Source of the DNA: Candidatus Thorarchaeota archaeon
Lineage (GTDB): Archaea; Asgardarchaeota; Thorarchaeia; Thorarchaeales; Thorarchaeaceae
Assembly: GCA_003345555.1 (NCBI GenBank)
Contig: PRDJ01000077.1
Span: 1-32,000, forward strand
Length of the DNA stretch: 32,000 nucleotides
Direction of reading: 5' to 3'
Shown here piece by piece: positions 19,141 to 24,246 of this stretch; position 1 is the first letter of the stretch, and every line of letters begins with the position of its first letter. The position numbers were made by a program, and so were the translations under genes. Under the pieces are notes generated by a model that saw only the letters and a list, made by a program, of their open reading frames with translations, was not told the DNA's origin and searched no databases.

Positions 19141-19971
19141 TCATAGCAGAGTGATTACCAGTCCCCATTTACTGATACCTAACTGGAGTTCACTGCCAAA
19201 TTCCTTTACATACCCATTCTCAATCCTTATTGATGACTTGTCCGAAACTTGTCTAATCTGATCATTCCAAAGGACAAGCTTGATTGAAGCCGTATCATCA
19301 GTGAGTACTGCATCAACCAACTTCAGTTGTTCGCCTGTTTTTCTAGATGAAACTGTGCGAGGACTCGAGAGACTTCGGACTTGTCCTTCAACCACGACTG
19401 AGACCAGGTCCTTGTGAAGGCCTTCGATTCTTGACATTGCTCTTGGGAATTCGTGAGAAATCCTTCTTTCGTAGTAGTTGCCGCTCCATTGACTGTACTC
19501 GTGCGTTGTTCCGATTTGAACGAATCCAAGCTTCCTATAGAATGGATTAGTCCTCAGATTCCATTCTGGGGTTCCCAATGCCCACAGATCAACGGAAGAA
19601 TATCTCTCCCAGATTAACTGAAAGGCCTTCTCCCCTATTCCCTTTCTCATGTAGGCAGGATTAACCCAAATCCTTTCACACACTTGATATCCGGGGCCTC
19701 TGTCTCCCACAATGAACCCGCCAACGATGTCTCCTCCCTTGAGAATCTTGTAGTATTGCAGGTACCTATTGGTAATCCTGTGTGAGTTCCAGTCAACCGA
19801 GTCATAGCCGGGAGGGCCGCCCGGACCAGGTGCTCCCACTTCCAAGTCTGAATCAAATGCTCTCCTGCAAGTTTCTGTAAGGATTGCAGCATCTTCGACT
19901 TCTGCTCTACGGACTGTGATTTCGGTTGCGGCATCCATTGAGAAAACCGGTTTCGCATGAGAAGTGCTCAT
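19141..19971 (-). CDS. GNAT N-acetyltransferase fused to an SSB/RPA-type OB fold
   Basis: WVNPAYMRKGIG (acetyl-CoA loop) and NPFYRKLGF at aa 100-150; then VEGQVRSLSSPRTV...LTDDTASIKLVLWND...IRIENGYVKEF at aa 190-270. ATG 19938 is an alternative start. Confidence 0.85.
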   Translation of the reverse strand: MSTSHAKPVFSMDAATEITVRRAEVEDAAILTETCRRAFDSDLEVGAPGPGGPPGYDSVDWNSHRITNRYLQYYKILKGGDIVGGFIVGDRGPGYQVCERIWVNPAYMRKGIGEKAFQLIWERYSSVDLWALGTPEWNLRTNPFYRKLGFVQIGTTHEYSQWSGNYYERRISHEFPRAMSRIEGLHKDLVSVVVEGQVRSLSSPRTVSSRKTGEQLKLVDAVLTDDTASIKLVLWNDQIRQVSDKSSIRIENGYVKEFGSELQLGISKWGLVITLL

Positions 19972-23433: not shown

Positions 23434-24246
23434 TCAGGCGTACATCCTTTCGTAACCTGGGGCGCCAATCTGCGGGGGTGATCTTCGCATTCCATCTACC
23501 TGATGGGCGACGTCTTCCAAGTGCTTGCGAATTTCCTCAGCCGACTCCTGTAGCTCTTTGACATCAACCCCTAGTCGGTACAGCTTGTTCAGAGCTTGTA
23601 TCAATTGGATTGCGCCATCAGGATCCGGCACTACTGCAATCGCAGGTGTCAGTAGAGCGAATCCAACCATTGACCTGCACAAGGTTTCAGCCAATACTGA
23701 CCCAGCGATTCCAGTGATGATACCCTTCTTGAGCATCTCCATCTCCTTGTACTTCTCGAGGTCAGCTATTTTTTCTTCTTCGGCAACGAAGAGGACCTTG
23801 CGTTCTTCTGGTAGACCCTGAACAGGAATCCCGTCAAGTACCACGGTTTCCTTGACGCCCATTGTTGCAGCCCAGTCCAGAAGTGATGAGCTGACCGCAT
23901 ACATACCCTCTTCTGCGACTGGCAGCTCCGTTGTTACAACAAGCAGATTCTTGGTTTTGTGTGCGTAGACTCTGAAAGGATGACGAAGCCTGCCGTCTAG
24001 AAAAACGGCAGCAGAAGGGATGTACTTCGATCGTAGGTGAGCAATCTCTTCCATCCCCAATTGGTCAATTATCGTGTTTGCCACAATTATGCCTACGACA
24101 CCTGCTGACGGGAAGCAGCAGAGGAGGAGAGGCTGGTTGAGCTTTACCTCCTTTGTCTGTACAATCTGAGCATCCGGAGAACCGAGAACCTTGCCAACAC
24201 ATGCGCTTGCCACTTTTGAGAACCCGACACGAGTTGATTGATACAC
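23434..24246 (-). CDS. PAC2-family proteasome assembly chaperone (PbaA/PbaB-like)
   Basis: FPSAGVVGIIVANTII, VVLDGI, GIITGIAGSVL and PDPDGA; C-terminal MYA. The exact start is uncertain. Confidence 0.88.
   Translation of the reverse strand: MYQSTRVGFSKVASACVGKVLGSPDAQIVQTKEVKLNQPLLLCCFPSAGVVGIIVANTIIDQLGMEEIAHLRSKYIPSAAVFLDGRLRHPFRVYAHKTKNLLVVTTELPVAEEGMYAVSSSLLDWAATMGVKETVVLDGIPVQGLPEERKVLFVAEEEKIADLEKYKEMEMLKKGIITGIAGSVLAETLCRSMVGFALLTPAIAVVPDPDGAIQLIQALNKLYRLGVDVKELQESAEEIRKHLEDVAHQVDGMRRSPPQIGAPGYERMYA

Follow-up and report, generated by a model that had tools for sequence, protein, structure and literature searches.

A gene on the reverse strand of contig PRDJ01000077.1 (Candidatus Thorarchaeota archaeon, GenBank assembly GCA_003345555.1) encodes a GNAT acetyltransferase joined to an OB (oligonucleotide/oligosaccharide-binding) fold of the kind found in single-stranded DNA-binding proteins (SSB). 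The gene, at positions 19141-19971, was analysed within the stretch formed by positions 1 to 32,000 of the contig, called the window below (32,000 nucleotides, nt). Two familiar domains are held here in an unstudied, conserved and rigid combination. The protein is read as an acetyltransferase that docks on single-stranded nucleic acid and whose acceptor there would be a cationic amine, in the likeliest case one carried by a protein, and the chances of this reading were judged to be evenly balanced. A preliminary description of the DNA had reported one uninterrupted open reading frame (ORF) with both domains, and this was confirmed: the frame is free of internal stops and both domains score above their Pfam gathering scores. 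No characterised protein of this architecture had been known to its author, and a GNAT-OB fusion was likewise not found in full-text literature searches, which included a systematic survey of archaeal fusion proteins.

The C-terminal domain was matched by the Pfam family Ssb-like_OB (PF21473) over amino acids (aa) 190-272 with 33.8 bits, the cut-off being 24; the scan of the organism's own genome gave 35.8 bits. Among NCBIfam models, this half of the protein was matched best by short ones for archaeal SSB and RPA, none of which came near its equivalog cut-off. The RPA arrangement of several OB folds with a zinc finger or trimerisation core was not found, as the protein has a single OB fold only and the RPA equivalog models gave 14-26 bits against cut-offs of 362-1147. 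Both motifs quoted in the preliminary description, DxTxxIxLVLW and IENGYV, were located, the former as DDTASIKLVLW at aa 225-235 and the latter at aa 250-255. A profile of the OB fold alone aligned with SsoSSB, the crenarchaeal SSB (PDB 1o7i, 2mna, 7wcg), over the whole domain at an expectation value (E) of 1.5e-16; archaeal RPA and human SSB1 (hSSB1) ranked lower.

Structure prediction agreed with this assignment. The model of the OB fold alone had a predicted local distance difference test score (pLDDT) of 93.7 and was superimposed on 1o7i with a template modelling score (TM) of 0.87 and a root-mean-square deviation of 1.4 A over 99 columns. The next fold matches were hSSB1, archaeal and eukaryotic RPA, Teb1 and POT1, all of them single-strand binders, and the 29 best fold matches were without exception OB folds of SSB, RPA or telomere proteins that bind single-stranded DNA (ssDNA). 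The fusion shares a single OB fold and a W/Y/F triad with crenarchaeal SSB, with hSSB1/SOSS-B1 (5d8f, 4owx) and with PF21473. It differs from SsoSSB and hSSB1 in lacking the flexible acidic C-terminal tail and in being joined rigidly to an enzyme, and its identity to them in structural alignments is about 20%. The C-terminus falls at the same residue, in the last OB strand, in 67 of the 79 full-length relatives over which all conservation counts were taken, leaving no tail of the SSB type.

In SsoSSB the residues W56, W75 and F79 stack on the bases in the structure with ssDNA, and RNA is bound by that face as well (PMC5346138). In hSSB1 the corresponding residues are W55, Y74 and F78, to which Y85 is added (PMC5027503). 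The equivalents of the triad in the fusion protein are W235, Y254 and F258 (Table 1). W235 is a tryptophan in 79/79 relatives, the position of Y254 is occupied by Y, F or H in 75/79, and that of F258 by Y or F in 79/79. The preliminary description had listed four stacking aromatics, W, Y, F and W. The first three stood; the fourth, W269, did not, as it is kept in only 37/79 relatives and is not the equivalent of hSSB1 Y85, whose position is held by G265. An SSB of this kind need not serve DNA alone: S. islandicus can do without its SSB, which functions as an RNA chaperone (PMC10684826).

The packing of the two domains was examined by complex prediction, with the GNAT domain (residues 1-160 of the 265-aa form of the product) and the OB fold entered as separate chains. 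The two-chain model scored 0.86, against 0.00 for the highest-scoring of 3 controls. The two chains are parts of a single polypeptide, and a pass is to be expected if such parts pack against each other in any way. Of 80 solved complexes, 58 attained the mark of 0.86, as did 2 of 110 mismatched pairs. Three runs shared 100% of their contacts, with a partner pLDDT of at least 91. No PDB entry spanning both domains was found among the Foldseek matches of the whole-protein model, so the score is not the memory of a solved complex. In the model the C-terminal OB strand pairs with a GNAT strand; further contacts are made by the OB N-terminus, strand 1, the helix (aa 240-241) and R249/E251 with the GNAT beta-3/beta-4 hairpin (aa 90-95). 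Together with the five-residue linker, the model describes the GNAT domain and OB fold as a rigid unit in fixed geometry with no flexible tether, and the predicted pairing of the last strand would explain why the protein ends precisely there. Pairwise identities average 54% in the GNAT domain and 50% in the OB fold, with correlated divergence (r = 0.88), and by this sequence comparison the two domains evolve together.

The same model bears on whether the OB fold binds nucleic acid at all. A part of its surface, comprising the invariant R249 and E251 and the last strand, holds the GNAT domain, and the SSB-type tail is missing. OB folds of other families bind proteins and oligosaccharides (PMC8881015). 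The domain might then be a structural, oligomerisation, protein-binding or pseudo-substrate module co-opted from an SSB gene. This was considered quite improbable, because the triad and the residues that flank it (R205, S209 and R210) are as conserved across phyla as the catalytic residues and because the best fold matches are uniformly ssDNA-binding. In addition, neither W235, Y254 and F258 nor the flanking residues are among the named contacts of the modelled interface, although a residue left unnamed there is uncertain and not proven free. Recruitment to single strands was regarded as the most economical explanation, since the stacking positions are both kept and outside the named interface contacts.

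In the mechanism proposed, the OB fold would bind about 5 nt of ssDNA or RNA through W235, Y254 and F258, and binding would place the GNAT active site beside the strand. The GNAT domain would transfer the acetyl group from acetyl-CoA to a cationic amine at the strand. The likeliest acceptor would be a lysine or the N-terminus of a protein on the same strand, while the nucleic acid, or a small amine bound to it, would be less likely. The fused enzyme would occupy the place of the partner-recruiting tail of free SSBs. The idea of an acetyltransferase recruited to ssDNA or RNA, already put forward in the preliminary description, agrees with the architecture and with the conservation of the triad. 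Either DNA or RNA may be the ligand, because SSB of the SsoSSB type binds RNA with the same face (PMC5346138).

The preliminary description had allowed that the fusion might be unique to this assembly, and it was instead found to be widespread. A word-indexed database search returned 288 close relatives. The best 120 of these were 256-326 aa long and 60-74% identical, nearly all with Pfam hits for both domains and a few with a precomputed hit for one domain only; the named sources among them were Thorarchaeota, Sifarchaeia, Hermod- and Hodarchaeota. An exhaustive search of 50%-identity representatives added full-length fusions at 31-45% identity. A scan that took one genome per species found the fusion in 117 genomes, which span at least three archaeal phyla. 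Database names for these relatives are generic ('GNAT family N-acetyltransferase', 'replication factor A1').

Archaeal locus analyses and label counts were based on the best 80 of the 117 genomes. The labels of the 80 loci were Thorarchaeota (28), Bathyarchaeota/Bathyarchaeia (24), 'Promethearchaeota' (9), Heimdallarchaeota (4), Hermodarchaeota/Hermodarchaeum (4), 'uncultured archaeon' (4), Hodarchaeota (3), Theionarchaea (2) and 'bacterial' bins (2). The two bacterial labels, L047 and L064 (binned as Patescibacteria and Krumholzibacteriaceae), most likely denote mis-binned archaeal contigs, judging by the tree, in which their fusion genes nest inside Bathyarchaeial clades; the L064 fusion is nearly identical to those of L065 and L077. 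The window protein was placed in a well-supported clade of 38 rows, which comprised Thor, Hermod and 'Promethearchaeota' members and unnamed archaea. Loci L050 and L051, labelled Thorarchaeota and Heimdallarchaeota, have identical fusion proteins and the same neighbours and are probably one organism filed under two names.

Within the Thorarchaeia the gene was present in 46 of 87 genomes at E < 1e-20, and in 10 of the 24 of high quality. It was not found in the other 41 of the 87 genomes searched, several of which are 97-99% complete. Two paralogue types occur in this class (about 490 and 260 bits), both together in some genomes, and two copies contain in-frame stops. One Thorarchaeota copy (L137:2542-3312, forward strand) is full-length and 50% identical, and is broken by an in-frame TGA and TAG; a natural split of the gene into GNAT and OB parts was rejected for this locus, as the gene caller had divided a stop-broken copy. 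The window's genome has one fusion copy and at least six other Ssb-like OB loci, and the fusion is therefore not the general SSB of the cell. The patchy presence, the paralogues, the pseudogenes and the lack of a conserved neighbour establish the gene as conserved but accessory, exchanged among sediment archaea and standing outside the core replication apparatus.

The N-terminal half was matched by Acetyltransf_7 (PF13508; aa 74-151) with 36.1 bits against a gathering cut-off of 27 and by Acetyltransf_1 (PF00583) with 32.5 bits against 20.7. A whole-protein AlphaFold2 model, built with 31 relatives, had a mean pLDDT of 88 and a predicted TM score of 0.82. It gave the strand and helix order of a GNAT followed by a five-stranded barrel, a predicted GNAT topology. 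Foldseek comparison of the whole model with the PDB returned generic GNATs only, at E of about 1e-9 to 1e-8 and 13-19% identity; the matches included PaiA (1tiq), 8osp, RimL (1s7n), SpeG, MccE and ArsN, and the match probability was 1.00 to many of them. With PaiA/SpeG, RimL/RimI and MccE only the GNAT fold is shared, with TM values of about 0.65-0.8 depending on the target.

The catalytic features are well kept. In the acetyl-CoA pyrophosphate-binding motif A, G111 is conserved in 75/79 relatives and G113 is G or A in 79/79; the basic residue lies one place later than in the textbook Q/R-x-x-G-x-G/A pattern (R109 in 57/79). The TPEWNxRT block is nearly invariant, with P135, E136, N138 and R140 in 79/79, and Y145, at the usual general-acid position, is kept in 77/79. 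Invariant acidic residues occur in family-specific loops (D40, D42, D57, E99 and E136), E99 being counted in 68/79. These acidic loops would favour a cationic acceptor, for instance lysine, an N-terminus or an amine of the polyamine kind. None of the curated small-molecule acetyltransferase models was reached by the fusion protein; the PaiA model NF053587, whose cut-off is 250, gave 18.5 bits, and ArsN1, whose cut-off is 170, gave 13.9.

The nucleic acid might itself be the substrate, the OB fold presenting a strand of which a base amine (e.g. cytosine N4) or an amino group at the strand end (e.g. that of an aminoacyl group) would be acetylated. Among GNATs, that of TmcA/NAT10 modifies RNA and those of TacT/AtaT-type toxins modify aminoacyl-tRNA, and the TmcA/NAT10 enzymes are more than 650 aa long. 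The rigid packing over a five-residue linker would suit such a function, as would the binding of both RNA and DNA by SSB of this type (PMC5346138). The likeness to TmcA/NAT10 is by analogy only, in the joining of a GNAT to nucleic-acid-binding modules, and the fusion protein of about 265 aa has none of their accessory domains in Pfam (DUF1726, helicase/ATPase, tRNA-binding domain). TmcA/NAT10 and TacT/AtaT enzymes were also absent from the sequence matches and from the 50 best fold matches, and the acidic pocket would be better matched to a cationic acceptor than to a neutral base. A GNAT toxin of a TacT/AtaT toxin-antitoxin pair was rejected, as the 80 archaeal loci contained no conserved antitoxin-like neighbour; a downstream ORF of 85 aa is confined to 8 Bathyarchaeia loci. 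Acetylation of the nucleic acid, which the preliminary description had offered as one option, was rated quite improbable. An equally doubtful proposal is that of a helicase-independent writer that acetylates single strands (e.g. as N4-acetylcytosine), or of an ssDNA-switched acetyltransferase that signals exposed strands; if it were true, a damage or stress sensor and its effector would be combined in one 265-aa protein.

Neighbouring genes were compared by calling and clustering ORFs in the 80 archaeal loci and in the window. Neighbours in the archaeal loci included a PEMT-like methyltransferase, MFS, EutA, aldo/keto reductase (AKR), ferredoxin and leucine-rich repeat (LRR) proteins, and no neighbour of the window gene recurred beside the fusion elsewhere. 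A targeted search of the 80 loci counted AlkD-like genes once, AKR 7 times, and GyrI-like and WYL genes 0 times. PADLOC anti-phage defence models gave 0 families at E up to 1, and PHROGs a generic acetyltransferase match only. In one Bathyarchaeial clade (L056, L059, L064, L065, L068, L073, L077 and L081) a small conserved ORF of 67-101 aa, with no Pfam match, lies on the same strand 45-150 nt downstream of the fusion; it is found neither in the window nor in other clades.

A role at forks or on chromatin, which the preliminary description had suggested, was unsupported, as no such neighbour is conserved in the 80 loci and as the gene was not found in 41 of the 87 Thorarchaeia genomes searched. 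The patchy distribution argues against a core replication or chromatin role and limits any bearing on the origin of eukaryotes. Eco1/ESCO, at forks, and the Sulfolobus Pat enzyme, acting on Alba, resemble the fusion by analogy only, in that protein acetylation is tied to a location on DNA. They reach their targets by PCNA binding or protein-protein contacts and have no fused SSB domain.

Stand-alone relatives of the GNAT domain, of about 150-170 aa and 32-49% identical over aa 18-160, are mostly bacterial. Their annotations go no further than GNAT or RimJ/RimL family, and the subfamily is uncharacterised. Its signatures are AFDxD...GGPPGYDS and DTPxWNxRT..FYEKxGF, and the loop GAPGPGGPPGYDS between helices 1 and 2 is common to the archaeal fusions and the stand-alone bacterial proteins. 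The latter share these signature loops but lack the OB fold, and some have other partners. Pentapeptide repeats are fused to the GNAT in 6 cluster representatives (P0162, P0210, P0236, P0238, P0260 and P0268), and a SWIM zinc finger in one (P0137, 47% identical). A transglutaminase core, a P-loop kinase, a metallo-beta-lactamase and a second GNAT each occur as a single case. The pentapeptide fusions, to which L102 also belongs, come mostly from Bacilli.

Sampling of bacterial genomes gave a member of the subfamily in 40 of 301 Bacilli, where roughly half lie in frames of 300-340 or about 510 aa, and in 1 of 401 Actinomycetota, which was the seed genome. In 30 Bacilli loci a chloramphenicol acetyltransferase stood beside 5 and an EamA exporter beside 4, and other GNATs were also adjacent. 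A metagenome scan returned 80 loci dominated by a Gaiellaceae-like lineage (L097, L138, L141-L165) in which the GNAT gene overlaps the start of an AlkD-like DNA_alkylation gene by 11 nt; this pair was found in 21 metagenome loci of one clade, which are not 21 independent observations. The simple ORF caller gave spurious antisense ORFs in the GC-rich metagenome contigs. The GNAT/AlkD-like pairing is apparently undescribed, and the pair directly follows a 2-oxoacid dehydrogenase E1/E2 operon. A GyrI-like/Cass2 gene lies directly downstream of a GNAT relative at L099, L100, L101 and L180, with an HTH-WYL-WCX regulator nearby at L099, L101 and L180 and an aldo/keto reductase also at L099 and L101. 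The subfamily repeatedly accompanies DNA-binding or DNA-mimicking modules, an observation from a small and partly non-independent sample that is offered as a lead.

An alternative is a small-molecule or detoxifying GNAT, whose target would be a cationic compound that acts on nucleic acid (for example a toxin, a polyamine, or an antibiotic of the nucleoside type or aimed at DNA), and whose OB fold would position the enzyme at the site of action or bind the compound. It is consistent with the accessory, patchy distribution with paralogues and pseudogenes, with the spread of the family over unrelated sediment archaea and with the resistance, exporter, GyrI-like drug-binding and AlkD-like glycosylase genes beside the bacterial relatives. 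The pentapeptide repeats are of the gyrase-protecting kind. The best fold matches include PaiA and SpeG (polyamine), MccE (microcin C immunity) and ArsN, and the acidic loops would fit a cationic acceptor. The alternative was nevertheless held to be unlikely, as the curated small-molecule models were not reached, as a soluble enzyme has no obvious need for a rigid SSB domain with an intact triad, and as resistance and transport genes are not regular neighbours in the 80 archaeal loci.

Several results weigh against an acetyltransferase docked on single strands. The conserved surface aromatics might serve a ligand other than nucleic acid, and the status of the residues left unnamed in the modelled interface is uncertain, as stated above. 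The GNAT fold matches (PaiA, RimL, SpeG, MccE) are too general to point to an acceptor. Beyond close clades the 80 archaeal loci share no neighbour, and none of the neighbours is a replication, repair or chromatin gene, the AlkD-like gene in 1/80 being the exception. DNA-damage genes were not found as immediate neighbours in the 30 Bacilli loci, and the bacterial associations are few or of one lineage.

If the OB fold does dock on single strands, the fusion would show in a simple natural form how the structure of nucleic acid can direct acetylation. To our knowledge almost no biochemistry exists for Asgard archaea and Bathyarchaeia. The protein is small (265 aa), confidently predicted and easily expressed, and its substrate can be sought directly. 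The fusion also draws attention to a large uncharacterised bacterial GNAT subfamily that is paired with pentapeptide repeats, a SWIM finger and AlkD-like and GyrI-like proteins.

The product probably begins at Met12 and has 265 rather than 276 aa. This start was preferred because the database call and the starts of the homologues lie there: the database entry for the gene (P0002) is 265 aa long and 100% identical, and aligned relatives begin at the equivalent of Met12. The upstream DNA, read by eye, is compatible with Met1 or Met12, and the choice was made from the homologues.

Table 1. Coordinates of the fusion gene, its parts and other features of the window.
Feature	Position	Strand	Basis
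Whole ORF, 276 aa and stop codon (19141-19143)	19141..19971	-	
Met12, probable true start codon, product 265 aa	19936..19938	-	Database call, aligned relatives
GNAT acetyltransferase domain, aa 17-172	19456..19923	-	Pfam, model, Foldseek
Subfamily signature loop GAPGPGGPPGYDS, aa 46-58, between helices 1 and 2	19798..19836	-	
Acetyl-CoA pyrophosphate-binding motif A, MRKGIG, aa 108-113	19633..19650	-	
TPEWNLRT..FY block, aa 134-145, with Tyr145 at usual GNAT general-acid position	19537..19572	-	
Linker HEFPR, 5 residues, aa 173-177	19441..19455	-	
SSB/hSSB1-type OB fold, aa 178-276, ending at last strand, no tail	19144..19440	-	
Trp235, equivalent to SsoSSB W56 and hSSB1 W55	19267..19269	-	HMMER alignment
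Tyr254, equivalent to SsoSSB W75 and hSSB1 Y74	19210..19212	-	HMMER alignment
Phe258, equivalent to SsoSSB F79 and hSSB1 F78	19198..19200	-	HMMER alignment
C-terminal strand LVITLL, aa 271-276, predicted pairing with GNAT strand beta-6 (aa 152-158)	19144..19161	-	Two-chain model
SNAP/TPR-like protein, 621 aa	17064-18929	-	SNAP Pfam match E 3.7e-10, and TPR
PAC2-family protein (proteasome assembly chaperone-like)	23434-24246	-	E 1.1e-38

The 3' neighbour of the fusion gene, which follows on the same strand after a gap of 211 nt, encodes the SNAP/TPR-like protein of Table 1. Its homologues are absent beside the fusion in other loci, and its product is a eukaryote-like helical-repeat protein. The upstream neighbour is divergent and encodes a Gfo/Idh/MocA oxidoreductase.

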